From the sequence record PZ154896.1: 64,000 bases of DNA; one strand, given 5' to 3'. The stretch is from a phage. The translations under genes were made by a program, and so were the position numbers. The notes beneath the pieces are model-generated. The model saw only the letters and a program-made list of their open reading frames with translations, searched no databases and was not told the origin of the DNA. Shown here one piece after another: positions 1 through 47,504 of the stretch (within the stretch, counting starts at the first letter, position 1; the number at the start of each line of letters is the position of its first letter).

Positions 1-1624
1 CTTTATCAGTTAGTACCCATTTACCAGGATTTTTTGTAATCAGAGTAGCCGTTACAGGTTCTGCTACGTCATAACTAATAGAGCCGTCCTGAAGTACACG
101 GCCCATGTTACGTAATTGCTTAGTCAGAAGTTCCATACCTTTATAATATGCGGCTACCGCTTTAAGTGGATTATTCTTGAAATAACCACCTAATGCAATC
201 CAGATAATTGCTACAGCCAAATGATGATACTCGTTAAACGAACTCATCTTTCCATATTTGTAAACTAATGGATTGATGTTAATAGTCACATTACAAGTTG
301 TTTCATCAATAGTAAACTGTCCCCAGGTCGGATTAGCATTGAATTCATCATAACCTGAAACAGCATAAAGCACTTTAGCTTCATCATACAATTTTGGCCC
401 GTAAATCTTGGTTTCGCCAAAATATCCACGAGGGTCGATAAACTTGACTTCACCATTATCAGTAATCATAGTATTACTGAAGTTCGGGTCGCCATGAATA
501 ACAGAGTACTGTCCCTGAGAACGGTTATGATAACGAATAAGGTGTTCTAAAGCTTGTTTCAGCATTGGCTTCAGACGCCCAATCTTAGTGTAGTTCACAT
601 GTGTGATTTTACCAAATGAATCAATCAATGGTTGAATACTTTCACAACGATCAATAACTTTCGTATAGAACTCTTTAGTGAAATCACGACGAACAGTTTC
701 AGGACTTACAAAATAAGTGTCTGTGCTGAATTTCAGTGCGTCTAAAATTGCATCAACAATTTGTGGACGAGCAAGACTCGATTTGGATTTAATATATTCA
801 AATGCCGGCTTACCTTTAATGCGTTCCATTTCAAAGTTATTTTCATTAACAGAAACTAACTGAGGAACTGAATCTGATTTCACTTTAAGATACCATGAAA
901 TCTCATCTTTCTGAAGAGCTCGGCCCTGTTCGGTTAATGCGAATTTAGTTACAGTTTCTTCACCGATTTCAACTGCATTAAAACTACGATTAAGTTCACG
1001 AACTTCATGAGCCTTTTCAAGTTTAGGCATATCACCTAAATCAATTAGATTCATAAGCTCTGATTTATTGAATGCGCTGCCGTAAAGGAATTCTACGAAA
1101 TCACGTCCTTTGCAGTATTCATGAATTTCCTCATCAGTAGAACCCATATAGAATTCCCAGTCTTTGAACTGATAAATTCCTACAACATTACCACCTGTTG
1201 AACCTACGTTAGTGATATTTTCACCGTCGAAATTATATCGACATTCGTCACCCTTAACATAGATTGCGTTAACATTCCAAGACCATGAACCAAAATCAGG
1301 AATAATATCACACCAGTTAACAATTACATTATGGCCGTCTAAATCTTTGTGTAATTTAGCAAGAGCATAAGCAGAACCATATGCTTCATCAACTGTACGA
1401 ATAGTCACATTGAACCCTTCTTGCTCACAATAAGCTCGAACAGTTTCAGCAAATTTTGAATGAACTACTACAATAATTTCATCTGCGCCAAGGTCAGAAT
1501 AAATTGTATACAAATTGCTCAGAATAGTGTCTTGTTTATAGTTAACAAGCACCTTAGGAATATGATGCGTTATTGGATACAAACGAGTTGCCAGTCCAGC
1601 ACCAAGAATAACAGCTTTTTTCAT
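1..1624 (-). CDS. bifunctional sugar kinase / sugar-phosphate nucleotidyltransferase (partial; 3' end lies beyond window start)
   Basis: Open frame on minus strand from ATG at 1622-1624 (SD GAGGA upstream) to position 1. N-terminus MKKAVILGAGLATRL is an NTP-transferase GxGxR motif; C-terminal part has IHGDPNFSN...FIDPRG, a kinase HGDxxxxN/D motif. My own translation. Confidence 0.6.
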   Translation of the reverse strand, partial: MKKAVILGAGLATRLYPITHHIPKVLVNYKQDTILSNLYTIYSDLGADEIIVVVHSKFAETVRAYCEQEGFNVTIRTVDEAYGSAYALAKLHKDLDGHNVIVNWCDIIPDFGSWSWNVNAIYVKGDECRYNFDGENITNVGSTGGNVVGIYQFKDWEFYMGSTDEEIHEYCKGRDFVEFLYGSAFNKSELMNLIDLGDMPKLEKAHEVRELNRSFNAVEIGEETVTKFALTEQGRALQKDEISWYLKVKSDSVPQLVSVNENNFEMERIKGKPAFEYIKSKSSLARPQIVDAILDALKFSTDTYFVSPETVRRDFTKEFYTKVIDRCESIQPLIDSFGKITHVNYTKIGRLKPMLKQALEHLIRYHNRSQGQYSVIHGDPNFSNTMITDNGEVKFIDPRGYFGETKIYGPKLYDEAKVLYAVSGYDEFNANPTWGQFTIDETTCNVTININPLVYKYGKMSSFNEYHHLAVAIIWIALGGYFKNNPLKAVAAYYKGMELLTKQLRNMGRVLQDGSISYDVAEPVTATLITKNPGKWVLTDK

Positions 1625-1665
1625 GTTGTGGTCCTCATTGGTAAGTAGGAGTATTGTACACTATT

Positions 1666-1809
1666 CTAGTTAAAGCATTCATACTTTGCTTGTAGTCCAA
1701 TCATAATCCATCCGATTACAAGTGTTGGAATCATTACTGGAGCCGTTAAGCTCCAGTAGATAGTCATGATAAGCATCAATAGTAAAAGTCCTATTGTTAT
1801 TGCTTTCAT
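1666..1809 (-). CDS. small hydrophobic membrane peptide (47 aa)
   Basis: ATG at 1807-1809 overlaps stop of upstream gene (ATGA). Product MKAITIGLLLLMLIMTIYWSLTAPVMIPTLVIGW is almost entirely transmembrane. Below ORF-track size cutoff. Confidence 0.35.
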   Translation of the reverse strand: MKAITIGLLLLMLIMTIYWSLTAPVMIPTLVIGWIMIGLQAKYECFN

Positions 1810-2441
1810 TGTTCGCCTCGTAACATGGCACCTAGTGCACCACCAGGGTGGAACTTAAGGAAGTCATTAGAGGTAAATCCACGCTCAGACGAAAGGTTGA
1901 TAGCAAACGTATCGATAAGCGCTAACAACAATGTAGTGGACATAGTCGGAGCCAGAGAATTCTCATCAACCTCTACTGCGATGCCTGTACAGAAAGAGTA
2001 ATCAAAAAGGGCTTCATTTTCTTGTGGAATGTCTGGGTTACAATGCAACAGAATCTGTTTGACGTTCGGACGAATCATTTTAAGATGCTTAGCCACGCCT
2101 ATCATTTCTTCAGTTTTACCAGAACGACTAATATGAATCAACACATCATTAGGCGCAATGAATCCTGCATCACCGTGAGAATAATGCCCGGTGTTCAAGT
2201 ACATACTCGGGATACCGAGTGAAGCAAATGTCTCAGAAGCTTTAGTTGCAATATTAGCATTCTTACCAACACCTGTAATAATTACTCGGCTTTCATAATT
2301 ACTAAGTCCGGGGCGTCGAAGAGTTTCTAGAATAGCATTATAACGAGCAGGGTTTTGACTAATTACTTTGGCCATAGCGGCCAAAGAAGAAGCTTGTTTT
2401 ATGATTGCGTCAATAGCGATAGTAATAGGAGTAGTTTTCAT
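1806..2441 (-). CDS. SIS-domain sugar-phosphate isomerase (KdsD/GmhA-like)
   Basis: 211 aa; VIITGVGKNANIATKASETFASLG matches the SIS phosphosugar-binding GxGKS motif. Confidence 0.7.
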   Translation of the reverse strand: MKTTPITIAIDAIIKQASSLAAMAKVISQNPARYNAILETLRRPGLSNYESRVIITGVGKNANIATKASETFASLGIPSMYLNTGHYSHGDAGFIAPNDVLIHISRSGKTEEMIGVAKHLKMIRPNVKQILLHCNPDIPQENEALFDYSFCTGIAVEVDENSLAPTMSTTLLLALIDTFAINLSSERGFTSNDFLKFHPGGALGAMLRGEQ

Positions 2442-2481
2442 ATTTCTCTCATTTAATTAGTTTACCGTCCATGTCATTATA

Positions 2482-5193
2482 TCAAAAATCGAACATATCG
2501 AACAGAGATGCTTTCTTCTCGTAATCGAGTTTCGCTGCTGATGTGAATCCTTCAAGTGGTTTAATAAATGTCTTCTCAAGGAGAACAGTGTAGTCCATCC
2601 AATGAAGTACGTCGTCTTTAATTAAATCTGTGATTTCAGTACCAGAAGGCCATGCGATACATTTATCACCGAATGGGTTTCCTTCACGTAAAGGCAGAAC
2701 ATATACTTTTTCACCTTCTACAACTTGCGGTGCATCGATATTACCTTTGATAGCCCGGTTATACGTCAGAATTCCACGAATATGGAACGGGCATTTGGGA
2801 CCAGGGAATCCACCTACATCATATTTAGCAATGTTATTCGCAGAAGATACCGACGCGATGCTAATATAATTCAATTGACGGAATTCTTTTTCAAACTCTT
2901 TAAAATATTCTTGTAATGATTCTTCACCTTCTTGAAGCATACGACGAATACATTCTTTAAGAGCTTTCTGTACTGCTTTAGGAGTCGAAGATTTCTGAGT
3001 CTCTAGACCCATGATTTTGAGTTTAGGCTCAGCGTAACGAGTACCTTCCATATCCCACACGTTTAATGCATAACGTTTCTTACCAGTCCAGAATCCACCA
3101 ATACCTTTAGAACCGAGTGGAGGCCCAGCGATAGCTTCTCGGTCCATGAACATTAAGTGTTGTTTATTGTTCATGTATTCACACATTTCACGGAAACCTC
3201 TATCAATAGCTGGTTCCATACGTTCACGTGCAAACTTATCTAAGAAGTCTACCCAATGGTTGGTATCACGGAATTTAGATTCACCAACCTTATCGATAAT
3301 TTTATCAGCAGATACGTAAATAGAGTCTGTATCACCATAAAGAACGAAAGCTTCACCTTCTGTACCACAAACTTCATTCAGATATTCATTAACTTTACGT
3401 TCAATCCACTGTAAAGCCATTTGCCCGAATGTTGTGATTGCAGTAGCATTACGCAAATCATAATAACGAAACCAAACGTTGCCAAGTGCACCATAAAGTG
3501 AGTTGATAAGCAATTTACGGTTAATTTGGGCAGTCATACCTGCAACTTCAGTACGTTGAGCTCTAAACAACATTTCATTAAGAGATTTAGCAGACAACTT
3601 TTTAATCTTTTCTTTAATCTCATCGCTGAAGTCGAAACGATAATCAACATCTAATGGTTCGTCAACAGAAAGATTAGGATTATGCAATGCCTCTTTAATT
3701 ATTTCGCCATTACGTTGAGCCGCAAGCATATAACCTTTATGTTCTTTACGTTGATTAAAGACCTTAGTGATTTCAGTTGGAACTACACCATCACGATCTT
3801 TATAATACATCATGCCGTTAGGAGAACAACTGTACACATCAGAAGGACGTTCAGCAACAGCGTTAATATAATCATGCAATGGAGCTACTTTAAACGTTCC
3901 TGCTATTGTTTCTGGGCTAATATTCACTTGGCGAATAATACTTGGATACAGAGATGTAAGGTCGAAACTCATTACATATTTGTATCGATTTGGAATAGGT
4001 TCCTTAACAAAAGCGCCGGGATAAGGTTGAACCGGGTGAGAACGACCTTGTGGAATCACCTTGTTCTGCTCTTTAAGGCTATTAAAAATAATAGCATCCC
4101 AAGTTTTAATTGGACTGAACACAGATTGAATCTGTATCTTAGCATAATAACCCATGTCCAAACTCAAGTTGATGAACTGACGCTTAGCATCAATTTGCAA
4201 TACACGATACACGTCGATAATGTTATAAGAAATATATCGTTGGTGATTGCTTTCACGAAGCTTAGAAATAGGGCCGTCATATTTCAGTTTACCAACGTTC
4301 AATTCAAATTCTGAAATGTAATCCAGAGAATATGACGGTTGATTGGTAAAAGAGAATTTTTTGTAAAGGTCAATGTAATCAAGAACAGAGATACCGAACA
4401 ATGTAATGATTTCACGAGAACCATACATGTTTTCAATAACTTTAACACGAGTTTTACGATGTGGTGATAAACGTTTCGCAGTAGATTCACCAAAAATATT
4501 CTTGATTCGGTTATACACATACGGAATATCAAATGACTCAACGTTCCATCCAGTCAAAATGACAGGAGTTTTCTGTTGCCAGAAGTTGAGATATTCCATC
4601 AACAATTCTTTTTCGTTATTGAACGGCATATAAATGATTTTATCGATAATTTCGGATGGAACTTCATCACCGCCTTGTTCTTGAAGCTTAGCAGCGATTT
4701 CAATAGACCATTCTTCTACATTACCATATGGAGAATTCAATAGATCAAATACGTAGAACCTGTCGTCAATTGAGTCATAATGGGTGATAGCATCAATCGG
4801 ATGTTTTGCTTGTGACGGCTCAGGGAACCCATCCGGAGATGTTACTTCGATGTCGAAGTTAGCCACACGAATTTTTGTATGGTCGTATTTGATTTCATAG
4901 TTATAAGTGTCAGACAAATACGCCAATTTGAAATCGTCCATGCCAAGTGCTTCAAGTCCGATATCTTCCATGCGTTTAATCCATTGGGAGGCATCACGCA
5001 TATTGGCGAACAACTTACGAGTACACGGCTTACCGTAGATATCGAAATATTTCGTAGCCTGACTTTCTGGACAATGAGCAAACAGTGATGGTTTATATTC
5101 TACTTCACGAGTACGTTCACGGCCGTTAGAATCGATGTAACGTTCAAAAATTGAATCACCAATCTGTTCAACCGTTAAGTAAAATTCTTTCAT
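2482..5193 (-). CDS. 43: DNA polymerase gp43 (family B, with 3'-5' exonuclease)
   Basis: 903 aa; near-identical over its length to the T4/RB69 gp43 sequence as I recall it (MKEFYLTVEQIGDSIFERYIDSNG..., YGDTDS polymerase motif). Confidence 0.97.
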   Translation of the reverse strand: MKEFYLTVEQIGDSIFERYIDSNGRERTREVEYKPSLFAHCPESQATKYFDIYGKPCTRKLFANMRDASQWIKRMEDIGLEALGMDDFKLAYLSDTYNYEIKYDHTKIRVANFDIEVTSPDGFPEPSQAKHPIDAITHYDSIDDRFYVFDLLNSPYGNVEEWSIEIAAKLQEQGGDEVPSEIIDKIIYMPFNNEKELLMEYLNFWQQKTPVILTGWNVESFDIPYVYNRIKNIFGESTAKRLSPHRKTRVKVIENMYGSREIITLFGISVLDYIDLYKKFSFTNQPSYSLDYISEFELNVGKLKYDGPISKLRESNHQRYISYNIIDVYRVLQIDAKRQFINLSLDMGYYAKIQIQSVFSPIKTWDAIIFNSLKEQNKVIPQGRSHPVQPYPGAFVKEPIPNRYKYVMSFDLTSLYPSIIRQVNISPETIAGTFKVAPLHDYINAVAERPSDVYSCSPNGMMYYKDRDGVVPTEITKVFNQRKEHKGYMLAAQRNGEIIKEALHNPNLSVDEPLDVDYRFDFSDEIKEKIKKLSAKSLNEMLFRAQRTEVAGMTAQINRKLLINSLYGALGNVWFRYYDLRNATAITTFGQMALQWIERKVNEYLNEVCGTEGEAFVLYGDTDSIYVSADKIIDKVGESKFRDTNHWVDFLDKFARERMEPAIDRGFREMCEYMNNKQHLMFMDREAIAGPPLGSKGIGGFWTGKKRYALNVWDMEGTRYAEPKLKIMGLETQKSSTPKAVQKALKECIRRMLQEGEESLQEYFKEFEKEFRQLNYISIASVSSANNIAKYDVGGFPGPKCPFHIRGILTYNRAIKGNIDAPQVVEGEKVYVLPLREGNPFGDKCIAWPSGTEITDLIKDDVLHWMDYTVLLEKTFIKPLEGFTSAAKLDYEKKASLFDMFDF

Positions 5194-5222
5194 TTAATTT
5201 CCTTTAGACGAGTTATTGTCTT
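5194..5222 (-). promoter_or_regulatory. gene 43 5' leader / putative translational operator
   Basis: mRNA-sense GACAAUAACUCGUC then UAAAGGAAAUUAAAUG; the AAUAACUCG loop resembles the T4 gp43 autogenous operator loop as I recall it. Confidence 0.4.
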
Positions 5223-5240
5223 TTGTTTGTTGATGAACTT

Positions 5241-5270
5241 ATTATACTCCAAATGGGACCGAAGTCCCAT
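5241..5270 (-). promoter_or_regulatory. TATAAT -10 element next to 7-bp UUCG-tetraloop hairpin (regA-43 intergenic)
   Basis: Minus-sense AUGGGAC-UUCG-GUCCCAU then TTGGAGTATAAT; -35 is poor. Confidence 0.35.
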
Positions 5271-5274
5271 TGCT

Positions 5275-5643
5275 TTAATTACCAATTGTATATTTTGCTT
5301 TCAAAGTCCAGTCATCTTTCTGTTTAAAAGAGATAACACGGAAGTTATTAGTCAGGCCAAACAGATCTTCACGAGCAGAGTCTTCAATAACAATCAATCC
5401 CCAGTCTTCAAGCAACTGGGCAATCGAATCACGTCGCTGATAGTCTTCACCATCAATATCAACCTGACGTCCGTCCATACGCAACATTTCTTTAAAGTGG
5501 ACGATATAGTACTTACCTTGCTTTTGGAGGATATGACAAGACTGGTAAAGGACTTTATCCTTGTTATTAGCGATGCCCATACGGGTCAAAGTCTCTTTGA
5601 CTTTCAGAAAATCTTCAGGGTTCTTCAATTTAATTTCGATCAT
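5275..5643 (-). CDS. regA: translational repressor RegA
   Basis: About 90% identical to T4 RegA from memory; start set to MIEIKLK by homology (ORF track starts 3 codons upstream). Confidence 0.9.
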   Translation of the reverse strand: MIEIKLKNPEDFLKVKETLTRMGIANNKDKVLYQSCHILQKQGKYYIVHFKEMLRMDGRQVDIDGEDYQRRDSIAQLLEDWGLIVIEDSAREDLFGLTNNFRVISFKQKDDWTLKAKYTIGN

Positions 5644-5645
5644 TT

Positions 5646-6209
5646 TTACCATTCCAATGCTAATTTTTTAAATTGTTTTTGTTCTTTCACATTTTTTGTA
5701 ACTTCTTTGAGAAACTCATCAGTGACCATGGCCTTCAGTTCTTTAAGGACTATTGGCAGCTTGTTATTTTTTTCAAGGAGCCGCTTATACTCTGTAGCAT
5801 CATTCATGTTGATTGTGTAATGTTTCATCAACAATTTGATAACTAGTAACTCTGAAGTGTCTTCGACTAGTTTAGCCCATTTAGAGAATCGACGACCACG
5901 CGGAATTGCCGCCATCATATAGTTGAAGTGCGCTTCATCACTTAATTCAGAACCGACTAAGTTCATCATGTAAACAGCTGGCATACATTCTGGGAACTGG
6001 GATAATGAGTTCTCAACCATAAATTTTGAGTAGTCGACCTGAGCAATTGACATAGATTTCTTTTCATTAATAGCATTAATGATTTTAAAGAATTCATTCT
6101 CAGGTTTTTCTTTAAACATATCAGCACATTTTTGAATCGCATCAGCGTCATTAGACTTCCATGCAATTTGGTGCTCGTTAAGCCGGACGTCATCATCGAA
6201 TAAGTTCAT
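5646..6209 (-). CDS. 62: clamp-loader subunit gp62
   Basis: 187 aa; collinear with T4 gp62 ([17 protein letters not shown]...KLALEW). Confidence 0.9.
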
Positions 6210-6210
6210 A

Positions 6211-7173
6211 TTATTTCCAAGTCAGTTCGCAGGTCAGTTGAAGAAGCATATACATAACGTGTAATTCAATATTACTTGCTAATCCATGAAACTTATTGTT
6301 TTCGCCTGCAATTTCATAAAGCGAAATAATACTTTTACCAGGTGCAACTTGGTCATAACATTCTGAAACTAATTTATCGATGAACCATGAATAATCTGCG
6401 GCATATTTTGGAGCTAATGCACGAAGCTGTTTGATATCTTTGTTCTTCATTGCTTCGATAACATCGGAGACTGTGCCACGGTCATTAGTTACGATAGACA
6501 AAATACCCGCATCAAGAACACCTTTAGACGAGTACTGGTCTAATTGACCGATTGTGCGACGAAAGTCCGGGAAGTTCTTTTTAACCAGAGCTGCAACAAC
6601 TTTCATATCAGCGATTTCGATATTTTCGTTCTTACAGATTTCAACCATACGATGAATCATTTTCTTCATCATCGAGATTTTATCTTCTTCGGTTGGACGT
6701 CCGAATTCGATAACTCGACAACGACTACGTAATGGTTCAATAATTCCGTCGATGTTGTTAGCAGTAATAACAATAGAGCAGTTACTAGAGAATTCTTCCA
6801 TAAACGTACGAAGGTGACGTTGTGATTCGGCGAGGCCACTACGGTCAAATTCATCAATAACAATAACTTTAGGCTTGCCTTCCATTGAGACTGAACGAGC
6901 AAATGCAGTTAACGGACCCCGCACAAAATCAATCTTACAATCAGAACCGTTGACAAACATCATTTCAGCATTGATATCATTACATAATGCTTTTGCTACG
7001 GTTGTTTTACCTGTACCAGGAGAAGGAGAGTGCAAAATAATATGAGGAAGTTTTCCTTTAGATACTAAAGACTTGAATGTTTCATGGTCATACGCAGGCA
7101 GAATACATTCATCAATGGAAGAAGGACGATATTTCTGTTCTAGAATGTGTTCTTTAGGATTGATAGTAATCAT
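6211..7173 (-). CDS. 44: clamp-loader ATPase gp44
   Basis: 320 aa; Walker [15 protein letters not shown] Walker B, SRC motif; T4 gp44-like. Confidence 0.95.
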
Positions 7174-7248
7174 GTAATTTTCCTCATTATCATTAAACTG
7201 GAGGATTTCTCCTCCATAATCGTATCACAATAAACGTAAAGCTTTGAC

Positions 7249-7935
7249 TTAGAAGTCGTGAGTAGAATCGGCTTCCATCGCAATAACATAACTTACTTGA
7301 GAGCTTTCAAACTTGGCTGCAACTTTATCACCAGCTCCCCACAACATTACTTTATAATTACCTGGCTGGATTTTCATATTAGCCATATTGATTACGAAGT
7401 TAAAGTTGTTAGAACCATCATAATCGGTAAGAGTCAAAGAATACTTAGGACGAGTTAGTCCAGAATCTTCAACTTTATTGTAACCATTGATAACAATTTT
7501 ACCATCTTTATTTGTAATAGCAATTGTATCAATCTGAAGACCACGTGAAACTCGAAGCAATTGTTGAAGGTCTTCGGCTTTAATTTCAGTAATCACAGAA
7601 GCCACTGGGAATTGAATTGGCTTATTAGGAAAAACAATGGTGCTCTTGTCAGCGGCAGGCCAATAAACTGTGGAACGTGTATCTGCAATTTTAATATTGC
7701 CATCGGTGTGCATTGAAATTTCGGCATCATCAGACACTAGACTCAAAATGCTTAAGAAGCTATTCAAATCATAAAGTGCTACGTCAAAATCAATTTCATC
7801 AGAGATATTTGCTTCCGCATAAGTGGTGCCATTAACTGCACGAGTCATAATAAATTTACCTTGACTCAGCAGAATGCCGGAGTTAATAGAGGCAAAGTTT
7901 TTCAGAATAGCGATAGTATCTTTAGACAGTTTCAT
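7249..7935 (-). CDS. 45: sliding clamp gp45
   Basis: T4 gp45 homolog; start set at MKLSKDT (ATG 7933-7935). Confidence 0.9.
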   Translation of the reverse strand: MKLSKDTIAILKNFASINSGILLSQGKFIMTRAVNGTTYAEANISDEIDFDVALYDLNSFLSILSLVSDDAEISMHTDGNIKIADTRSTVYWPAADKSTIVFPNKPIQFPVASVITEIKAEDLQQLLRVSRGLQIDTIAITNKDGKIVINGYNKVEDSGLTRPKYSLTLTDYDGSNNFNFVINMANMKIQPGNYKVMLWGAGDKVAAKFESSQVSYVIAMEADSTHDF

Positions 7936-7977
7936 TTTATTTCCTTTCAAGACAATTCAAAGTTTATAACAAATTTA

Positions 7978-8394
7978 TTATGCAGCAACCATTTGCTTTT
8001 TAATAGCTTCAGGCAGTGATTCAATATATTCTGGAATTTTAGAAGCAACAATTTCGCCAGCTGCAATTAGCTGTTCGTCGGCATCAACACAGTAGAAATC
8101 TTCCAGACGCTCAGAACCATCTTTATCAAGAACGATTTTTCCGCCGGCTTCAATAGAATCTTTATAGTGCTTACGCATCAGATGAATCCACATATCAGAT
8201 ACATCGTTATCAATAAAACCATAAATCATAAAACGAGTTTCTTGTGGCAAAGATTGGAGTTTTTTAGCACTTGCGTCATCACAATGCAGGACCCATGCTT
8301 TACGAACACGATTATGGTTATGCGGGTTAGCGTCAGTACGGATAGAAGTAACTTTCAGATCAGCAGCAGTGAAACCTTTAGCAGTAGTAAACAT
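7978..8394 (-). CDS. rpbA: RNA polymerase-binding protein RpbA (by position)
   Basis: 138-aa ORF immediately downstream of gene 45, as in T4. Confidence 0.55.
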   Translation of the reverse strand: MFTTAKGFTAADLKVTSIRTDANPHNHNRVRKAWVLHCDDASAKKLQSLPQETRFMIYGFIDNDVSDMWIHLMRKHYKDSIEAGGKIVLDKDGSERLEDFYCVDADEQLIAAGEIVASKIPEYIESLPEAIKKQMVAA

Positions 8395-8406
8395 ATTATT
8401 TCTCTC

Positions 8407-8607
8407 TTATTCGTAGAAGTCGGTAACTGTCCATGCGGAATTGCGATTAGACATTATTTTATTATACTCATCTTTAAAAGCAGATTTGAGCATTTGTTCA
8501 GTAACAATATGTTCTTCACCTGAAAACGTATTGGTCAAAACATATTTTTTAATTTCAGGGACAACGAGAAGATGTTGGCCGGTTGAATACTCCATGTTGT
8601 TCTCCAT
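8407..8607 (-). CDS. hypothetical protein (T4 45.2 position)
   Basis: 66-aa ORF between rpbA and 46. Confidence 0.5.
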   Translation of the reverse strand: MENNMEYSTGQHLLVVPEIKKYVLTNTFSGEEHIVTEQMLKSAFKDEYNKIMSNRNSAWTVTDFYE

Positions 8608-8649
8608 TTAATTTGATGTGGTCATTATAACCACATCGTGTTAAAGCGT

Positions 8650-10338
8650 TTATGAAACAGTCATTACAGTAAATCGTCCAACTTTGCTCATTTGAAGATG
8701 TTGTCCATAAGCTTGTGGGTCATGGTCTCTGTGACTAATTATAAACACGTTTGCATCGGTTAGAGAGTTAAGAATTGTTGAAATAGCTTTAATACCTTCA
8801 GAATCAGTCGCGGAATCCATGACTTCGTCCATAATTAATGTATTGATTCTAACACCAGAGACCTTTTCAGCAATATCTCGCCATGTAAACAACAATGCGA
8901 TATCGATACGCGCTTTTTCGCCTTGACTAAATGAAGCATAACTGAACTCTTCACGGCCACGTGATTTTATAGATTCATTGAATTCTTCATCAATAGAAAA
9001 CACGTAATCAGCTTCCATGATTTTAAGATAATGGTTAATCTGCTTGTTGAACAGAGGCACATATTTTTTAATGATAGCACCTTTAATACCGGAATCTTTT
9101 AACATATCTGTGATAATACCACGATGGTATTTTTCAAGAACGATATCTGATTTTGTTTTAATGATTTTATCAAGTTCTTTTTGAAGCAAAGCTATCTCAT
9201 CAGCGTGGTCGATAAATTCCGCCGAGGCTTGTTCTATTGCAGCTTTAACTTTCTTAGCTTTATCAATAGTGGCAATCATTGCTTGTTTCTTGGTACGAAT
9301 ATCAGATGCAAGGTCCTGTTTAGTCTTAACATTAGCTCTATATTCGTCCACTAGGACACTCAGATTATCTCTGTGGCATGTAAGTTGCTCGAATGAGTGA
9401 TTACATTCATGAAGCTTATCGGTAATCTTAGTGACAATAGGATCACCCTGGTGCAACTGTGATGCACAAGTAGGACATGTACCACCATCATGATACATCT
9501 TAATAACTTTGTTATACGAGTCAATTTTAGATTTAATCAAGAATGCTTCTTGTCCTATCTTGTTGAATGCCTCAGTAGGGTCTTCGTCAAGAACGATATT
9601 AAGTAGACGCTCATTAGCTTCTTCGATTTCTGCTTTTAATGAACGAGCTTCTTTGGCTAGGTCGTCATACATGTTCTGTAGACGCGCTACGTTATCACCA
9701 GATAATTTCTTTTGACGTTCGATATTCTCGTTATAAATCTTAATTTGTTGGATAATACCATCTTTCTTGGCATCGAGAACTTGACCCTGGGAATTAAGTT
9801 CTCGAACTTGAGACTTATTGATTTTATCCATTTCGGCGAGTGTGCCGACTTCTAAAAGGTCTTCGACAAGTTTTCTACGAGCAGGGGTGCTAAGAGCCAT
9901 GAAAGGGGTATACCCTGCCGTCCCAAGCACAACGATTTGTTTAAAAGACGCGTATGACATTCCGATGCTACGTTCAAATTCTTCTTGGAAGTCACGACTG
10001 CTGGCAGATTCATCAAGACGAACACCGTCAACGGAGATTTCGAAAATATTGGGCTTTTGGCCACGTTTAATGAAGTATTTTTTACCATCGAATTCCATCC
10101 AAAGCTCAACTAAGAGCTCTTTCTTGTTCGTGCTATTAATGATTTGCCCTTTCTTAACATCACGAAATGGTTTACCGAAAAGTCCGAAAGTAATGGCTTC
10201 TAACATCGTAGATTTACCACCACCATTTTTACCTGTGATTAAGGTCTTTTGGACTTTATCTAATTGGATATCGATAAAATTTTGCCCAACAGACATTATA
10301 TTTTTATAACGAACACGATTTAATTTAAATGATTTCAT
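8650..10338 (-). CDS. 46: recombination endonuclease subunit gp46 (Rad50/SbcC-like ATPase)
   Basis: 562 aa; Walker A GKNGGGKST, central coiled coil, CPTC zinc hook, C-terminal signature/Walker B; collinear with T4 gp46. Confidence 0.95.
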   Translation of the reverse strand: MKSFKLNRVRYKNIMSVGQNFIDIQLDKVQKTLITGKNGGGKSTMLEAITFGLFGKPFRDVKKGQIINSTNKKELLVELWMEFDGKKYFIKRGQKPNIFEISVDGVRLDESASSRDFQEEFERSIGMSYASFKQIVVLGTAGYTPFMALSTPARRKLVEDLLEVGTLAEMDKINKSQVRELNSQGQVLDAKKDGIIQQIKIYNENIERQKKLSGDNVARLQNMYDDLAKEARSLKAEIEEANERLLNIVLDEDPTEAFNKIGQEAFLIKSKIDSYNKVIKMYHDGGTCPTCASQLHQGDPIVTKITDKLHECNHSFEQLTCHRDNLSVLVDEYRANVKTKQDLASDIRTKKQAMIATIDKAKKVKAAIEQASAEFIDHADEIALLQKELDKIIKTKSDIVLEKYHRGIITDMLKDSGIKGAIIKKYVPLFNKQINHYLKIMEADYVFSIDEEFNESIKSRGREEFSYASFSQGEKARIDIALLFTWRDIAEKVSGVRINTLIMDEVMDSATDSEGIKAISTILNSLTDANVFIISHRDHDPQAYGQHLQMSKVGRFTVMTVS

Positions 10339-10589
10339 ATGTATTCTCTTCGAATGAAGTCCTCTACATATTTTAACATGTCATCTCTATCAGCAAAATA
10401 TTCATCTAGTTCTGCGTACATAACAACACCCGGTGCGTACTCACAGGTAACATACATTGTTCCAAAGAAACGAGGAGTTGATTCCTCGTAATTCTCAGTC
10501 CATTCAACGATACCAATATAACCGTCACCAATACTAAATTCATGACGATGGATTTCGTAATCAGTCTTCGTCATTATACGCGTCCTCAA
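10335..10589 (-). CDS. hypothetical protein (T4 46.1 position)
   Basis: 84-aa ORF, ATGA overlap with gene 46. Confidence 0.55.
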   Translation of the reverse strand: MRTRIMTKTDYEIHRHEFSIGDGYIGIVEWTENYEESTPRFFGTMYVTCEYAPGVVMYAELDEYFADRDDMLKYVEDFIRREYI

Positions 10590-10818
10590 TACACGCTTCA
10601 GCCATTTTAAGAATAGAGCCAGGAGTATCGTCGTCCATTATATTAAAGCTAAATTCAATAGCCCAGTCGGTGCAGACATGAACTGCTTTAACTTCATTGC
10701 CTTCAACGCGTAATGGCTCAATCCAATACTTGATAGTGTTCTCAAATCCATCATCGTCTTTAACGTCCATTTCAACTTCAAGCCTGAGTCCAGCATTGTT
10801 AAATTCATCTAAAGTCAT
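10561..10818 (-). CDS. hypothetical protein (T4 46.2 position)
   Basis: 85-aa acidic ORF between 46.1 and 47. Confidence 0.55.
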   Translation of the reverse strand: MTLDEFNNAGLRLEVEMDVKDDDGFENTIKYWIEPLRVEGNEVKAVHVCTDWAIEFSFNIMDDDTPGSILKMAEACIEDAYNDED

Positions 10819-11834
10819 TGTGTTGCCTCAATATAAAGTTCGTTGGAATATTTGACCAGCGCTTCTCTGTCTTCGTCTGAGATATCTGGAATCGCGTCAA
10901 TATATTCTTTAATGATATCTTGAAGTGATTTAATCTCGATTTCCTGGTCATCATCAGATTCAACACTGTTATCAACTTTAGAAACCATACGAAGAGAGTG
11001 AACTACTTTTTCAAGTTCAGATTCAAACTTAGTCAACTCTGAATCAATTTCTGATACTATAACACGTAAGGCTAGATTAGTATAATCAGAATAATTGATT
11101 TTGCCTTTAAACGGATAAGTGATTCGTCGATGCCATGTTGTTTCATTAGGAATAAATTCCATACGTTCAACATCAGTGTCAAATACCCAGAATCCGCGCG
11201 GGTCGTTCTCATCACCTGCAGTAAGTGTCCATGGTGTCCCAATATATTTAACGTTAGCAGCTTCAGAGATTGTGTGGAAGTGGCCGGACCAGACTTGTTT
11301 ATAGGTCTTTAAGAAATCAGGTTCAAGCCCATGAGACTTCATTCCTTTATAGAAATAAAAGCCGTTCAGTTCCCAGTGACCAACACAATACGCGGCAGAA
11401 GAAGTCTTGATGTGCTCTAAGATTTCACCTGTATTTTCTTCACACATCCATGGAACGATATCAATTAGACATCCGTCAAAATCTACAGTAGTTGGATGCT
11501 CATAAATAGTAAAGTTTTCAAATTGAGTTAACAATTCAGAAACAGTGTTAGGTGTTATTGTATTCTTGAACGCCATGTCATGGTTTCCTATCGTGACATG
11601 AACGTGAATGCCTGCTTTAGAAATCATATCAACGATTTCACGATTGAATTCCATTGTACGATGTGTTATTGCTTTACGGACGTCAAACCAATCACCGTAC
11701 TGAATCCAAGTTTTAATCCCGTGTTTCTTAGAGTATTCAATTGCTTGACGAATACCATCACGTTGAATATCTTGAACCCATGGGTCGTCTTGTTTGACTC
11801 CGATATGGAAGTCGCCTAAGTGCAAAATTTTCAT
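10815..11834 (-). CDS. 47: recombination nuclease subunit gp47 (Mre11/SbcD-like)
   Basis: 339 aa; phosphoesterase motifs LGDFH, GDWFD, GNHD, GHFH; same length as T4 gp47. Confidence 0.95.
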   Translation of the reverse strand: MKILHLGDFHIGVKQDDPWVQDIQRDGIRQAIEYSKKHGIKTWIQYGDWFDVRKAITHRTMEFNREIVDMISKAGIHVHVTIGNHDMAFKNTITPNTVSELLTQFENFTIYEHPTTVDFDGCLIDIVPWMCEENTGEILEHIKTSSAAYCVGHWELNGFYFYKGMKSHGLEPDFLKTYKQVWSGHFHTISEAANVKYIGTPWTLTAGDENDPRGFWVFDTDVERMEFIPNETTWHRRITYPFKGKINYSDYTNLALRVIVSEIDSELTKFESELEKVVHSLRMVSKVDNSVESDDDQEIEIKSLQDIIKEYIDAIPDISDEDREALVKYSNELYIEATQ

Positions 11835-11879
11835 ATTATTTCCTCATTAGTTAATTCATTCTATCATCCGTTTATAAAG

Positions 11880-11906
11880 CAAAAAAAAGGAACTCCGAAG
11901 AGTTCC
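11880..11906 (-). terminator. rho-independent terminator (UUCG tetraloop)
   Basis: Minus-sense GGAACUC-UUCG-GAGUUCC followed by UUUUUUUUGC. Confidence 0.6.
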
Positions 11907-12079
11907 TATCCACATAGTACACCGTACAAAGGCTCATTTGAACTTTTAAATCGAATGGGCTTGTATGTAATAGTTCCTTCGGCTTTAGCTTTATCATAAG
12001 ACTCTTTAAAACGTCTCATTCTTTCTGCTTTGCCTTTACGGATTTTATCGAAATTTTCAGAGGTCAGGTCGTTCGTCAT
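11906..12079 (-). CDS. small hypothetical protein (57 aa)
   Basis: ATG at 12077-12079, stop TAG at 11906-11908; terminator directly at its 3' end. Below ORF-track cutoff. Confidence 0.35.
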   Translation of the reverse strand: MTNDLTSENFDKIRKGKAERMRRFKESYDKAKAEGTITYKPIRFKSSNEPLYGVLCG

Positions 12080-12118
12080 GCACAATCACCTCTCAGAAAA
12101 TACCTAAATCGATTTCTC

Positions 12119-12340
12119 TCATCGTTTCCACCATTTCTTAACTTGAAATGAATCAACCCACACGAGTTGTTTTGGGTCTGCCTTTACAATAGGTGGACAA
12201 ATTTCTGTAATAGAACTGTCGTGATATTCCTTTTCAGAGATTTTAACACAAAGAGGACCTCCCAATTTAAGGGTGAACCCTGCGTTCAGCTTCAGACGTT
12301 TAAACTTTGTTTGAACTAGCGCCATTAATGATGTCCTCAA
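12119..12340 (-). CDS. hypothetical protein
   Basis: 73-aa ORF overlapping next ORF by about 40 nt; start uncertain. Confidence 0.3.
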   Translation of the reverse strand: MRTSLMALVQTKFKRLKLNAGFTLKLGGPLCVKISEKEYHDSSITEICPPIVKADPKQLVWVDSFQVKKWWKR

Positions 12341-12623
12341 TAGCCTGACGAGTAGTAACCCACTGGATTTTAATTAACTTGTCATTATATGGTTGTCGTA
12401 GAATATCCCGAGATTTCTTAATAGCATATTCGTAAGCTTCGAAGTTGTTTTGAATTGCTGCTTCTTGAGCATGAGCATAAAGACGGTTTAGTTCAAAACG
12501 ATTCTTTTTAAGAATCTTTTCGGATTTTTTACGTGCTTCAGCTTCATTTTTCTTTTGGATTTCTTGTAGCATTTTAGCTACTGCATCTTCTGCTTCTTTA
12601 TTTTCAATAATCTCGGTAGTCAT
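12300..12623 (-). CDS. hypothetical coiled-coil protein
   Basis: 107-aa ORF, Lys/Glu-rich helical. Confidence 0.5.
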   Translation of the reverse strand: MTTEIIENKEAEDAVAKMLQEIQKKNEAEARKKSEKILKKNRFELNRLYAHAQEAAIQNNFEAYEYAIKKSRDILRQPYNDKLIKIQWVTTRQAIEDIINGASSNKV

Positions 12624-12624
12624 A

Positions 12625-12834
12625 TTATCTCATTAAATTAAAATAAAAACGTCCATCCTCTTCAATACAGAACTCATACTCAACTGGAGTCCCATTTATC
12701 GAAAATGACACGTCATGTGGGTTCAAAGGGTCGATGTCAAAATTAATTTTAAATTCACGACCCAACAGTTTTACCAAATAAGGGATTGCTTCGTCAAAAG
12801 GTTCTTCTAAGTAGTTAGAGATGTCAATTGTCAT
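12625..12834 (-). CDS. hypothetical protein
   Basis: Start moved to ATG 12832-12834 (MTIDISN) so overlap with gene 55 is only 11 nt. Confidence 0.45.
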
Positions 12835-13381
12835 CCTCATATAAAAAATCCAAACTAGGCGAATCGCTAACAACTTCCTTCTTTTCAGCCCCAGGAGCTT
12901 TATAAGCGGATTCTTCATAATGCGTCATTTTATCGTAGATGTCTTGAATAAACGTTTCATCTACCAACGCTACCATATCATCGTCATGACTGTCGTAGAC
13001 ATTATGAACGAAGTAACTATATTTCTTTGCAACTTCCTTACGTTCTTTTTTGATACGTTGGACAAAAGCATTAAAACAAGCTCGAGTTATGTATGCATGT
13101 GGGTTATTGTACTTAGTTTCGTCGAAATTATGAAGTCCCTTAATAGAGGCTTCAATCCCATCTGCAATCATCTCCTGCTTCCAAGACTGGGTATATCCTG
13201 AAAAGTTGAAACGTTTGGACAGGCCTTCGGCGATAAGCATAATTGCTAAACCGATGGTATCATTCTGACGAATAATTTTGTTTGGGTCTTTATTATTTAA
13301 GAGCTCCTTTTTCCACTCGATTATAGCGGCGAGAAGCTCTTTATTATTCACATAATTATTTTTAGGTTTTTGTTCAGTCAT
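12824..13381 (-). CDS. 55: late-transcription sigma factor gp55
   Basis: 185 aa; about 90% identical to T4 gp55 from memory ([39 protein letters not shown]). Confidence 0.95.
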
Positions 13382-13402
13382 AAGTACCTCTTAGCTCAAT
13401 TC

Positions 13403-13437
13403 ATAGGTCTATTATATCATAATATTTAGAGACCTAT
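13403..13437 (-). promoter_or_regulatory. palindrome with TATAAT (upstream of gene 55)
   Basis: ATAGGTCT...AGACCTAT inverted repeat; -35 element not obvious. Confidence 0.3.
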
Positions 13438-13536
13438 CTTAAAGCACGAGATACTATCAAAGATACGTAACTTTCATAAAGTTGTCGACTTAAAATTCAC
13501 CAAACTTTTCTTCGGTTATAGCGATTCAAGATAGTT

Positions 13537-13764
13537 TCATTCTATTTCCTTTGCTGCAAATAAGGCAGCATCCAACGAATCAAATTGGTCAACGAAATCA
13601 ATATTCAACGCATCGTCAACCGTAGCATATAACCACCATTGTTTGAATTCATATTCTAGGATAAATCCAGGCCCTTCAATCTGAGGAAGACCTAGGCTAT
13701 TTGTACCAACTTCGTAACCAGCTAGACGCAGGTCATTAATCAAAGTTTCTGTTAATACGCTCAT
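13537..13764 (-). CDS. hypothetical protein
   Basis: 75-aa acidic ORF. Confidence 0.5.
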   Translation of the reverse strand: MSVLTETLINDLRLAGYEVGTNSLGLPQIEGPGFILEYEFKQWWLYATVDDALNIDFVDQFDSLDAALFAAKEIE

Positions 13765-16520: not shown

Positions 16521-16630
16521 ATTTACCCTTAATTAACTAAGCATTGATAAGCACTAAACTATATTGCGAATAAAATTCTGGACCAAAACGAAAAATCATG
16601 TCATTTATAGTATCCATAATGTAATTCAAT

Positions 16631-17101: not shown

Positions 17102-18915
17102 TGGTGTTTAACCCTATGCATGATTTCTTTATTTTTACCGAGATTAAATCCGCGTTCGTTCGGATTTCCCAAATAACCGCATGTTCTTCTTATAGTATTC
17201 ATCTTTTTAGGATCAGTTTCTCCACAAACTGAACAAACAAATCCGTTTTCAGTAGGAGTCATTTCATGAGTACTTCCGCATGTAAAACATTTATCTACTG
17301 GCATATTAACACCAAAATAATCTAAATGTTGCGCAGCATAATCCCATACAGCCTCAAGACCTTTTAGGTTATTTTTCATATCAGGAAGTTCAACATAAGA
17401 AATGTGACCGCCTGTTGCAATGAAATGATATGGGGCTTCGCGAGAAATCTTTTCAAATGGAGTAATATTTTCTTCTACTGAAACGTGGAAACTGTTAGTG
17501 TACCAGCCTTTATCGGTGACATCTTTTACACTTCCATATTTTTCTGTATCAAGTTTACAGAAGCGATAACAAAGGTTTTCAGCAGGAGTAGAATATAAAC
17601 TAAAAGCAAATCCAGTTCTTTCAGACCACTGTTTAAGATGAGCATTCATTTTAGTTAAAATTTCTTGTCCAATATCACGACCGACAAGAATATTCAATTC
17701 GTGAATACCAATGTATCCCAAAGACACTGAACTTCTACCATTTTTAAATAACTCAATTATATCGTCATCAGGTTTAAGACGAACCCCGAATGCACCTTCT
17801 TGGTAAAGAATAGGAGCTACAGTTGCTTTAACACCCTTTAAAGAACTAATTCTACACATCAAAGCTTCAAAACACAGATCCATTCGTTCATTAAATAGCT
17901 CAACAAATTTCTGTTCATTGAATTGTGTTCCAATATAAGAATCTAATGCAATACGAGGAAGATTCAGTGTTACAACACCAAGATTATTACGTCCATCAAG
18001 AATTTCATTACCAGTCGAATCTTTCCATACACTCAAGAAACTACGACAACCCATTGGAGAAACAGGAATAGATGAACCGGTGATAGCTTTATTATTCTTA
18101 ACTGAAATAATATCAGGATACATTCTTTTGCTTGCACACTCTAGAGCAAGCTGCTTAATATCATAGTTCGGATCATCTTTATAAAGATTAACACCTTCTT
18201 CAACAAACATAACAAGTTTAGGAAAAATAGGAGTTATCCCATCGCGTCCAAGGCCTTTAATACGATTTTTCAGAATTGCTTTCTGAATCATTCGTTCAGC
18301 CCAGTCAGTTCCCATACCAAACGTAATTGTTACAAAAGGCGTTTGTCCGTTTGAACTAAAGAGAGTATTTACTTCATATTCATAAGCTTGGAATGCATCG
18401 TATACGTCTTTTTCTGTTTTAGATTGGGCATAATTCAACGCATCAGCGATTTGCCATTTTTCTGCATCTTCAACATGTTTAGCGTATGTGCGTTTAACAT
18501 AAGGAGAAAGAACTTTATCGACATTCGCAAATGTAGTTCCGCCGTACTGGTGTGAAGCAACCTGTGCGGTAATTTGTGCCATAATTGCAGTAGCAACGCC
18601 AATAGATTTAGGCGTTTCAATTTGAGCATTACCTAGCTTAAATCCATTCTCAAGCATCCCCTTTAAATCGACTAAACAGCAATTAGTAAATGGAAGAGCA
18701 GGAGAATAATCAATATCATGCATGTGAATGATTCCGCTTTCATGCGCATTCATAATAAAAGACGGGACCATATTTTTGGCAATGTGCTTAGACACAATAC
18801 CAGCCATAAGGTCCCGTTGAGTTGGAAAAACACGAGAATCTTTATTAGCATTCTCGTTCAAAAGATCTTTATTAGTTTTATGAATTAATCCTTCAATTTC
18901 TTTTTCAATTTTCAT
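17098..18915 (-). CDS. nrdD: anaerobic ribonucleoside-triphosphate reductase NrdD
   Basis: 605 aa, same length as T4 NrdD; C-terminal CFTCGSTH...CSVCG zinc ribbon and glycyl-radical region; uninterrupted. Confidence 0.95.
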   Translation of the reverse strand: MKIEKEIEGLIHKTNKDLLNENANKDSRVFPTQRDLMAGIVSKHIAKNMVPSFIMNAHESGIIHMHDIDYSPALPFTNCCLVDLKGMLENGFKLGNAQIETPKSIGVATAIMAQITAQVASHQYGGTTFANVDKVLSPYVKRTYAKHVEDAEKWQIADALNYAQSKTEKDVYDAFQAYEYEVNTLFSSNGQTPFVTITFGMGTDWAERMIQKAILKNRIKGLGRDGITPIFPKLVMFVEEGVNLYKDDPNYDIKQLALECASKRMYPDIISVKNNKAITGSSIPVSPMGCRSFLSVWKDSTGNEILDGRNNLGVVTLNLPRIALDSYIGTQFNEQKFVELFNERMDLCFEALMCRISSLKGVKATVAPILYQEGAFGVRLKPDDDIIELFKNGRSSVSLGYIGIHELNILVGRDIGQEILTKMNAHLKQWSERTGFAFSLYSTPAENLCYRFCKLDTEKYGSVKDVTDKGWYTNSFHVSVEENITPFEKISREAPYHFIATGGHISYVELPDMKNNLKGLEAVWDYAAQHLDYFGVNMPVDKCFTCGSTHEMTPTENGFVCSVCGETDPKKMNTIRRTCGYLGNPNERGFNLGKNKEIMHRVKHQ

Positions 18916-23451: not shown

Positions 23452-24446
23452 CATTCCTTAAGAAGTTTTACTACTTGAATAAGATTAGCTCGTTCTGTTT
23501 TATTTTTACTGTTTAAGCCTGCTAATCGTGAGATTTCATCATCAGTCTGTTGAATAGTTACATTAAGTTCGTTAATCAAAGCTTCAAAGTATTTGATTTG
23601 CTCAGCATGTTTTGATTCAAATTTCTGAACCGGAATAACGTCTTGGTTTAGTTCATCAATAAGGTCTTTAAGAGCATCTTCTTGGTTGATATCATATTCA
23701 ACTTCTTTTATTTCTTCAACGAGCTCGTCTTTATATCTAACGTCTTTTAGTCCTGGTGCTGGTCCTGAAATCTCTTCTTTAAGAGTACAAACATATCCAA
23801 TACGGTATCCAATGCCGTCTCGCTTGATATCAACTTCGTCAATAAATCCACAATGTTTAAGACCAGAGCCGATTAGGTCAAAATATCCTTGACGTCGTCC
23901 TTCAAACGTTACACGAACTACTAAGACAGTTTTACCTGCAACCTTTTGAAGCTCACATTTATAAAAGTCTGTTGAACCTGAATAACGTGGATGAGTTTTA
24001 AAGTTCATCTGACGATCTAGGCCCATTTGTAAACGTGCTGATACAGCCAGAAAACGTGTTTGGTTCTCGTTAAGATGAGCAACAATCCATTTCAAAGGCA
24101 TTTTACACTGTTCACGACCGAACAAATCAGTACGTCCTAGATTACGCAGGATGTTGTTAGAGTTAATCATCGACAGAACGTTAAGTTTATTCAGCGCGCT
24201 GAAGATTCCATCGGCCATTGATTTTCCGTAACCTTTACACGCTTTAATAAGCGCTCGCGGTAGATTAGTATAGATTTCAGACGGCATATGAAAATCAAAT
24301 TTACTAGTCAGTAATTGATGAACTTGGATAGCAATTTGCTCATAATTAAGTGCTCTGCGATCATTATGGTCTTTAAACCACACTTTAATCTGTGAAGCAC
24401 ATAAACCGTTAATTTCATGTTTTACCGCATCAGATGTAATGCTCAT
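23451..24446 (-). CDS. hypothetical protein with C-terminal coiled coil
   Basis: 331-aa ORF. Confidence 0.55.
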   Translation of the reverse strand: MSITSDAVKHEINGLCASQIKVWFKDHNDRRALNYEQIAIQVHQLLTSKFDFHMPSEIYTNLPRALIKACKGYGKSMADGIFSALNKLNVLSMINSNNILRNLGRTDLFGREQCKMPLKWIVAHLNENQTRFLAVSARLQMGLDRQMNFKTHPRYSGSTDFYKCELQKVAGKTVLVVRVTFEGRRQGYFDLIGSGLKHCGFIDEVDIKRDGIGYRIGYVCTLKEEISGPAPGLKDVRYKDELVEEIKEVEYDINQEDALKDLIDELNQDVIPVQKFESKHAEQIKYFEALINELNVTIQQTDDEISRLAGLNSKNKTERANLIQVVKLLKE

Positions 24447-24482
24447 AACTATTTCCTCAGATTGAATTGGAACTCAAAACCA

Positions 24483-24505
24483 TTATAACCCGTCCTTGGG
24501 TAAAG
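24483..24505 (-). promoter_or_regulatory. putative early promoter (TTTACC-17-TATAAT)
   Basis: Minus-sense TTTACCcaaggacgggtTATAAT. Confidence 0.4.
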
Positions 24506-24508
24506 CGT

Positions 24509-25036
24509 TTATGCGTGAACCGTCTTTAAACGTTCTTCAAATTTACGAAGAGTACTAATACGTTCTGATTTCTGTTTTGTATAGTTTGCAATACGTTCTG
24601 AAGTGAGAGCGTATCGTTCGTTTACTGTTTCTTTCATGAAGTCAGGGATTTCACGAGAAGCTTTAATTTCATCAAACTTATCGAGTACTGCCTGGTCTTC
24701 AGCGATTAAATTTTCGTACATCTCGATATCTTTCTTGATAAACTCGATATCTTCCTGGGTTACTTTGGATAAACGAGATGCTTTATCCTTTTTGTACTGC
24801 TCGTTAGTTTCACGAGACCAGAATAATGTACGTTTTTTGTTAGTGTTTTTGTAGACTTCCACAATTCCAACTGAATCGATGATAGCAATCCAATTCCAGC
24901 GAGATTTGAAAATCTGACCTCCGTCCACGGTAATCTCGTTACCATAAGCAACGTCATTAAAGAACTTGCTTTGTGCTTCAGATTTAAATTTACCGTCGTT
25001 ATAATTTACCAGGTTGAAAATATCTTTAGCGTTCAT
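24509..25036 (-). CDS. hypothetical protein
   Basis: 175-aa ORF. Confidence 0.5.
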   Translation of the reverse strand: MNAKDIFNLVNYNDGKFKSEAQSKFFNDVAYGNEITVDGGQIFKSRWNWIAIIDSVGIVEVYKNTNKKRTLFWSRETNEQYKKDKASRLSKVTQEDIEFIKKDIEMYENLIAEDQAVLDKFDEIKASREIPDFMKETVNERYALTSERIANYTKQKSERISTLRKFEERLKTVHA

Positions 25037-25054
25037 GTTTTACCTCCAGTAGTT

Positions 25055-25093
25055 GATAGGTCTATAATAACACAACCATAGACCTTGTAAACA
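25055..25093 (-). promoter_or_regulatory. early promoter in AGGTCTAT/ATAGACCT palindrome (GTTTACA-17-TATTAT)
   Basis: Family B cassette; see findings. Confidence 0.5.
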
Positions 25094-47270: not shown

Positions 47271-47347
<77 letters not shown>

Positions 47348-47350
47348 GAT

Positions 47351-47425
47351 TGGTGACCCTGGCTGGTTTCGATCCAGCTACCTATCAGTTATGAGCTGAC
47401 AGCTCTCCCATTGAGCTACAGGGCC
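47351..47425 (-). tRNA. tRNA-Met (anticodon CAU; could be Ile2 if lysidine-modified), CCA encoded
   Basis: Manual fold: acceptor GGCCCUG/CAGGGUC, D-stem GCUC/GAGC, anticodon loop CUCAUAA, T-arm GCUGG-AUCGAAA-CCAGC; 3 nt from tRNA-Arg. Confidence 0.8.
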
Positions 47426-47504
47426 TTAATAACTTTCTATTATGAAAGGCACTTTAGAGCACCTTTGGTAATAGAGGGTATGAATTAATAATAACACATA
47501 ATTC

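Follow-up and report, generated by a model that had tools for sequence, protein, structure and literature searches.

The 64 kb stretch of phage DNA analysed here (the window) is very probably a segment of an RB69-like phage of the genus Mosigvirus, in which the interval between genes 47 and 55 is an 'empty' form of the site that holds the alpha-glucosyltransferase gene (a-gt) in T4, and the absence of this gene fits the DNA chemistry of the group. We read a-gt as missing between 47 and 55 because the window comes from an RB69-like relative of T4, a member of the group that modifies its DNA with arabinose. That this phage group lacks a-gt is already known: the RB69 record has shown the arrangement since 2003, and papers of 2018 and 2026 described the chemistry. 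Our addition is modest, namely that the a-gt-free junction appears as a fused terminator-like and middle-promoter-like element, and that the same element also flanks a-gt where the gene is present.

The interval at 11835-12823 had been picked out from the sequence as lying between genes 47 and 55, and indeed it is precisely the gap between them. The genes that frame and fill it, together with gene 46, are as follows.

8650-10338, minus strand: gene 46, with 82.5% amino acid identity to the T4 protein
10815-11834, minus strand: gene 47, SbcD/Mre11-like recombination nuclease subunit, 339 aa with a Metallophos domain (Pfam); lower border of the interval
11906-12079, minus strand: a-gt.2 homolog, 57 aa from an ATG (59 aa from an upstream TTG); DUF5486, phrog_2140
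12119-12325, minus strand: a-gt.3 homolog, 68 aa (73 aa from a TTG); phrog_1648
12300-12623, minus strand: a-gt.4 homolog, 107 aa; DUF2654
12625-12840, minus strand: a-gt.5 homolog, 71 aa; DUF5491
12824-13381, minus strand: gene 55, late sigma factor, 185 aa; upper border of the interval

The minus-strand order of genes 55, 47 and 46 is the T4 early-gene order. At the protein level, the product of gene 47 is 75.5% identical to T4 gp47 and 99.7% identical to RB69 gp47, and that of gene 55 is 90.7% identical to T4 gp55 and 99.5% identical to the RB69 gp55 sigma factor. The original prediction counted three or four small ORFs of 57-107 aa in the interval, which was correct; the actual number is four, all on the minus strand, and together these genes account for 89% of its length.

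The four small genes were readily assigned to families and to T4 counterparts. Identity to T4 (tblastn) was 75% for a-gt.2 (E 4e-23), 72% for a-gt.3 (E 5e-30), 58% for a-gt.4 (E 2e-32) and 47% for a-gt.5 (E 1e-14), and the four proteins were 98-100% identical to their RB69 counterparts, with values of 98%, 98.5% and 100% for a-gt.2, a-gt.3 and a-gt.5, respectively. Pfam scores for DUF5486, DUF2654 and DUF5491 were 97.2, 96.6 and 48.2 bits against curated cut-offs of 27, 25 and 27, and the PHROG E-values for the four genes ranged from 1e-24 to 7e-37. Their order between 55 and 47 is identical to that in T4, as is the 17 nt overlap of the a-gt.5 homolog with the 3' end of gene 55. The a-gt.3 gene is annotated in the RB69 record and is without annotation in PhAPEC2. 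In the window, a 39 nt gap (12079-12119) with a GAGGTGA ribosome-binding site lies between a-gt.3 and a-gt.2, whereas the T4 pair has a 16 nt overlap; the first ~10 residues of a-gt.2 could not be aligned between the window phage and T4.

The names a-gt.2 to a-gt.5 are positional. The PHROG families of these genes carry no functional assignment, no related solved structure was found for any of them, and a full-text literature search on the gene names returned a single paper, on comparative genomics. Of the four, the a-gt.4 homolog (DUF2654) has the widest conservation, and it alone was detected in all seven of the other phages compared, with homologs in the Dhakavirus, Karamvirus, Klebsiella phage, Lazarusvirus (Acinetobacter) and Krischvirus loci (at 5301-5510 in compared locus L010 and at 5346-5534 in L011). 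Its presence in all seven shows that a-gt.4 is independent of the type of sugar on the DNA.

A glucosyltransferase gene does not fit into this interval. Across all six frames, the longest stop-to-stop frame is 109 aa, and the T4 proteins are 400 aa (a-gt) and 351 aa (b-gt, Pfam PF09198) long, so that there is no room for either. When T4 a-gt, b-gt, 47.1 and mobB were searched against the whole 64 kb window by tblastn, none gave a match at E<0.1 (best E values were 0.53 for a-gt and 5.9 for b-gt), confirming the earlier claim that a-gt is absent from its T4 position and extending it to the full window. The six-frame profile check of the interval, run with Pfam, likewise returned no glycosyltransferase, and frames other than those of the four genes matched no family at E<=1. 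A glycosyltransferase hidden in another frame was rejected on the same grounds, as the frames of at least 43 aa had no Pfam match (E<=1) and none exceeded 109 aa. The AGT profile PF11440, which scored 862 bits on T4 a-gt as a control, found no match among the interval ORFs and remaining frames. Elsewhere in the window, we rejected the presence of a glycosyltransferase after Pfam searches of ten large or unassigned ORFs and searches with T4 a-gt and b-gt, and the two Mosigvirus transferases used as queries had no match inside the 64 kb.

These Pfam results have to be read against the behaviour of Pfam on the transferases of the group itself: the Mosigvirus transferases gp003 and gp040 (PhAPEC2 2520-3620 and 24189-25091) had no Pfam match at E<=0.01. 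Because Pfam is blind to known Mosigvirus transferases, its negatives on the window ORFs are weak and would be compatible with a divergent glycosyltransferase, and we therefore base the argument for absence on the tblastn searches and on the orthology of window genes to those of relatives with annotation. It also follows that Pfam-based screens of T4-like phages for DNA glycosyltransferases would overlook the proposed arabinosyltransferases of the RB69 group.

The best database matches were all Mosigvirus, with 99.1% identity over 10800-13400 (PhAPEC2) and at most 97.1% over 1-25000. Compared with RB69 DNA, the window was 98.1-98.3% identical over 1-13458 and 98.3% identical across the interval. 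According to its GenBank record, RB69 has the same order of 47, a-gt.2, a-gt.3, a-gt.4, a-gt.5 and 55, also without a-gt, and its interval measures 987 nt against 989 nt in the window. The window is not RB69 itself, which is excluded by the identity of ~98% and by one indel, and the phage collection held no record identical to it (best 97.1% over 25 kb). Judged by these matches, the window phage is evidently another isolate of the RB69 group (genus Mosigvirus).

Other features of the window were recorded alongside. Beyond ~13458 its identity to RB69 falls from 98% to 94%, and near this point, upstream of gene 55 and before the 55.1 homolog (13537-13764), RB69 has ~185 nt more, with RB69ORF072c, which the window does not have. 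Two tRNA genes, Arg-TCT and Met-CAT, were found by ARAGORN at 47271-47425 on the minus strand, with a MotA-box/-10 match just upstream of them at 47488-47512 (minus); the PhAPEC2 annotation has three tRNAs at the matching place.

The left end of the window carries two genes of the proposed sugar pathway, and both are the same as those of RB69.

1-1624, minus strand: nucleotidyltransferase-kinase fusion (RB69 gp52:53, ORF53_52c), with an NTP_transferase domain and weak kinase-like matches; the last ~20 C-terminal residues are cut by the window edge
1806-2441, minus strand: arabinose-5-phosphate isomerase homolog (RB69 gp55/ORF055c), with a SIS domain, 100% identical to RB69

The isomerase homolog lies directly downstream of the DNA polymerase gene 43 (2482-5193); its RB69 counterpart carries the annotation arabinose-5-phosphate isomerase, and a role for it in the sugar pathway is proposed in PMC6024577 and PMC13326640. 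The fusion is 99.5-99.7% identical to RB69 ORF053c and ORF052c, and whereas the RB69 record splits this gene, the window has it as one intact frame. Thomas et al. (2018, PMC6024577) ascribed the ORF052c/053c split to sequencing error, and the intact frame agrees with their correction. A MotA-box/-10 match (TGCTTTA-N12-TACAAT) is present at 1653-1677 (minus), ~30 nt upstream of the start of the fusion. In relatives, the rest of the cluster (phosphatase-like, U32 peptidase-like, thymidylate-synthase homolog, transferase and kinase genes) falls just to the left of the window and had no match inside it, and neither had the homologs of gp48 and of the transferases gp46:47 and gp3. Homologs of RB69 gp48 and of both GT-B-like transferases (gp46:47 and gp3) are present in PhAPEC2.

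In T4, DNA contains glucosyl-hydroxymethylcytosine, and the substrate of a-gt and b-gt is hydroxymethylcytosine in DNA. RB69 differs in both sugar and base. Thomas et al. (2018, PMC6024577) found no RB69 gene homologous to known glucosyltransferases and detected arabinose, not glucose, in the DNA of this phage; they proposed that ORF003c is the transferase and that ORF53_52c and ORF055c act in UDP-arabinose synthesis. Lee et al. (2026, PMC13326640) revised this picture: in RB69 DNA one or two arabinosyl residues are ether-linked to 5-hydroxycytosine, the modified base being 5-hydroxycytosine rather than hydroxymethylcytosine, and 5-hydroxy-dCMP (5hodCMP) is made by gp48. The same authors proposed the GT-B-like gp46:47 and gp3 as the first and second transferases, assigned to arabinose transfer, reported this chemistry for RB69 and DLP3, and noted that both T4 glucosyltransferases are absent from RB69 (PMC13326640).

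Applied to the window phage, the pathway would start with the replacement of cytosine by 5-hydroxycytosine, made as a mononucleotide by the thymidylate-synthase homolog. GT-B-like proteins, which share no sequence relationship with a-gt or b-gt of T4, would then transfer arabinose to the base, one residue or two, with UDP-arabinose as the proposed nucleotide-sugar donor. At the left end, the isomerase and nucleotidyltransferase-kinase genes would be two of those proposed for UDP-arabinose synthesis, with the transferases and the base-forming enzyme predicted just outside the window. As T4-type glucosyltransferases need hydroxymethylcytosine, we infer that they would find no substrate in a 5-hydroxycytosine phage. 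The original prediction took the missing a-gt to fit a phage that does not glucosylate its DNA and uses an alternative sugar pathway encoded at the left end; this reading is supported by the two left-end genes, by the near-identity to RB69 and by the published arabinose chemistry of RB69, which this particular phage probably shares.

We compared the same interval in representatives of other T4-like genera, and found that the gene content of the site varies among them.

T4 (Tequatrovirus): 3152 nt, a-gt present, with mobB and 47.1
Roth79 (Klebsiella phage): 2360 nt, a-gt present, 66% identical to T4 a-gt
CC31 (Karamvirus): 1073 nt, a-gt absent
dhaeg (Dhakavirus): 1032 nt, a-gt absent
window, RB69 and PhAPEC2 (Mosigvirus): 987-989 nt, a-gt absent
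MIZ3 (Krischvirus): 596 nt, a-gt absent
DLP2 (Lazarusvirus, Acinetobacter): 583 nt, a-gt absent

An a-gt-free interval is thus the usual state among these genera, so that by itself it is weak and non-diagnostic evidence of DNA chemistry. It is the left-end genes and the identity to RB69, rather than the bare absence of a-gt, that point to an alternative sugar.

The junction where a-gt would lie in T4 consists of two adjoining elements, listed here with the copies found around a-gt in the two phages that carry it.

11907-11880 (stem-loop 11907-11888), minus strand: intrinsic-terminator-like hairpin, AGGAACUC-UUCG-GAGUUCCU followed by U8, from a terminator scan
11881-11858, minus strand: MotA-type middle-promoter-like site before gene 47, with MotA box TGCTTTA at 11881-11875, an 11 nt spacer and -10 hexamer TAGAAT at 11863-11858
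16608-16627 and 18716-18735 in the T4 locus (L002): copies of the composite element
~6068-6120 and 7340-7395 in the Roth79 locus (L009): copies of the composite element

The UUCG terminator named in the original prediction is present as a motif, in the form of a C(UUCG)G hairpin and U8 after a-gt.2. The hairpin folds with an 8 bp stem and a UUCG loop and overlaps the a-gt.2 stop codon, and the PhAPEC2 annotation has a terminator at the matching position. Folded in its 66 nt context, the hairpin had a z-score of just -1.37, and for this reason the terminator call is founded on the motif. The last U residues of the U-tract merge into the TGCTTTA box, and downstream of the -10 hexamer a GAGGA ribosome-binding site (11845-11841) precedes the gene 47 start codon. 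MotA-dependent middle promoters of T4 combine a MotA box (TGCTTtA) with a sigma-70 -10 hexamer that follows it after 11-13 bp, and the succession of box, hexamer and ribosome-binding site before gene 47 has the layout of such a promoter. In the window, 11 matches to the pattern TGCTTYA-N11-13-TANNNT were counted where 2.08 were expected (about fivefold), and none of 100 shuffles reached this number. Transcription of a-gt.2 to a-gt.5 would run towards gene 47 and meet in turn the hairpin with its U-tract, the MotA-box/-10 site and the ribosome-binding site of gene 47. As consensus matches, the hairpin would function as a terminator and the MotA-type site as a middle promoter.

Alignment showed that the MotA-type site beside the hairpin is conserved in five other loci. 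The window, Dhakavirus and Karamvirus each have a single copy of the composite of hairpin, box and hexamer, lying upstream of gene 47; in T4 and Roth79, a-gt has a copy on either side, again made up of a UUCG hairpin, a MotA box of the GCTTTA type and a -10 hexamer. The composite element is the breakpoint of the difference between presence and absence of a-gt. We considered and rejected the possibility that a UUCG hairpin with a MotA box is a dispersed repeat: the window held three such combinations against 0.66 expected, and the other two lay in coding sequence or on the opposite strand. The element is conserved and specific to this site.

Given these data, we weighed how firmly the loss of glucosylation can be stated and how the empty site may have arisen. 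The phage might still glucosylate its DNA, if its genome encodes a glucosyltransferase beyond the window or if the window itself contains a divergent one. Such a gene could have escaped us in that direct examination covered 64 kb of a genome of ~168 kb (~38%), with the remainder judged from relatives 97-99% identical, and in that Pfam does not recognise the divergent transferases of the group; the T4 b-gt site, between genes 42 and uvsX, is outside the window, and the uvsX-43 region is only partly inside. Against it, the complete PhAPEC2 genome, searched as five loci, gave no credible match to T4 a-gt or b-gt, with the T4 control locus at 100%. The best PhAPEC2 match to either query, at E=0.087 over 69 aa, was apparently spurious, and b-gt had no match in that genome at E<=1. 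The scan for both genes was thus negative in the window itself and, by proxy, in the complete genome of a relative. The phage collection pointed the same way: about 504 records carried a-gt at an identity of at least 80% and 505 carried a T4-type gp55, which leaves none for the ~153 records with a gp55 of the window (Mosigvirus) type. Moreover, in RB69, which is 98% identical to the window, the sugar detected on the DNA was arabinose and not glucose (Thomas et al., 2018, PMC6024577). Together, these observations make continued glucosylation highly improbable.

With the window taken as an RB69-like segment bearing an empty a-gt site, that state could be either ancestral or derived. In the former case, a-gt (in T4 with the homing endonuclease gene mobB) entered the terminator/promoter element upstream of gene 47 as a self-contained cassette that brought a hairpin and a middle promoter of its own, in the lineages of T4 and the Klebsiella phage. 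We give this a little less than an even chance. Most of the genera sampled are a-gt-free, with intervals of 583-1073 nt, and the two intervals that carry a-gt measure 2360 and 3152 nt; the duplicated composite elements flank the insert; a homing endonuclease gene adjoins a-gt in T4; and composite terminator/promoter elements are documented at the borders of indels in T4-like phages (PMC2839356, PMC4122927). However, the identical a-gt site in T4 and Roth79, with 66% identity between the genes, would then call either for an old insertion and loss in Mosigvirus, Dhakavirus and Karamvirus, or for two insertions. The same divergence between the two a-gt genes is close to that of the flanking genes, as expected for vertical descent with losses, and so also speaks for a derived empty site. 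Here a-gt would have been present in an ancestor shared with T4 and deleted in Mosigvirus by recombination between the flanking hairpin/middle-promoter elements, after the switch from hydroxymethylcytosine to 5-hydroxycytosine had made the gene useless. This fits the bracketing of a-gt by the same composite element in T4 and Roth79, and also the make-up of the window junction, in which the stem is like the upstream T4 copy and the sequence after the box is like the downstream one. Yet a-gt is also absent from the Dhakavirus, Karamvirus, Krischvirus and Lazarusvirus representatives, which would demand several independent losses, and no remnant of a-gt, mobB or 47.1 was detectable in the window by tblastn. 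A derived origin is possible, then, and we lean against it. It is with similar reserve that we suggest a general model, in which a-gt of the T4-type and Klebsiella T4-like phages is a cassette between two copies of the composite element, the window is the single-copy empty site, and recombination between such elements lets a lineage acquire or shed DNA-sugar genes as its base chemistry changes.

Outside annotation, the significance of these findings is small. Without a-gt and with the sugar genes at the left end, the phage belongs to the arabinose-modifying RB69 group, and this placement predicts that it would resist many restriction enzymes, be sensitive to defences that recognise arabinosylated DNA and be genetically isolated from T4. 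The junction element gives a concrete breakpoint at which to study swaps of DNA-modification genes in T4-like phages.

The site in the window can be set beside two known systems. T4 has orthologous flanks in genes 47 and 55, a-gt.2 to a-gt.5 in the order of the window, and a UUCG hairpin that overlaps the a-gt.2 stop codon in the same way; it differs in the 2.2 kb of extra DNA between this hairpin and gene 47, which holds mobB, a-gt and 47.1. A further parallel is found in the PeSLs, composites of a stem-loop and a promoter that occupy intergenic positions at indel borders in variable regions (Arbiol et al., 2010; Comeau et al., 2014; PMC2839356, PMC4122927). The junction element resembles them as a stem-loop fused to a promoter-like site at an indel border, but whereas PeSLs were defined with early promoters, the element described here carries a MotA box and is of the middle-promoter type.
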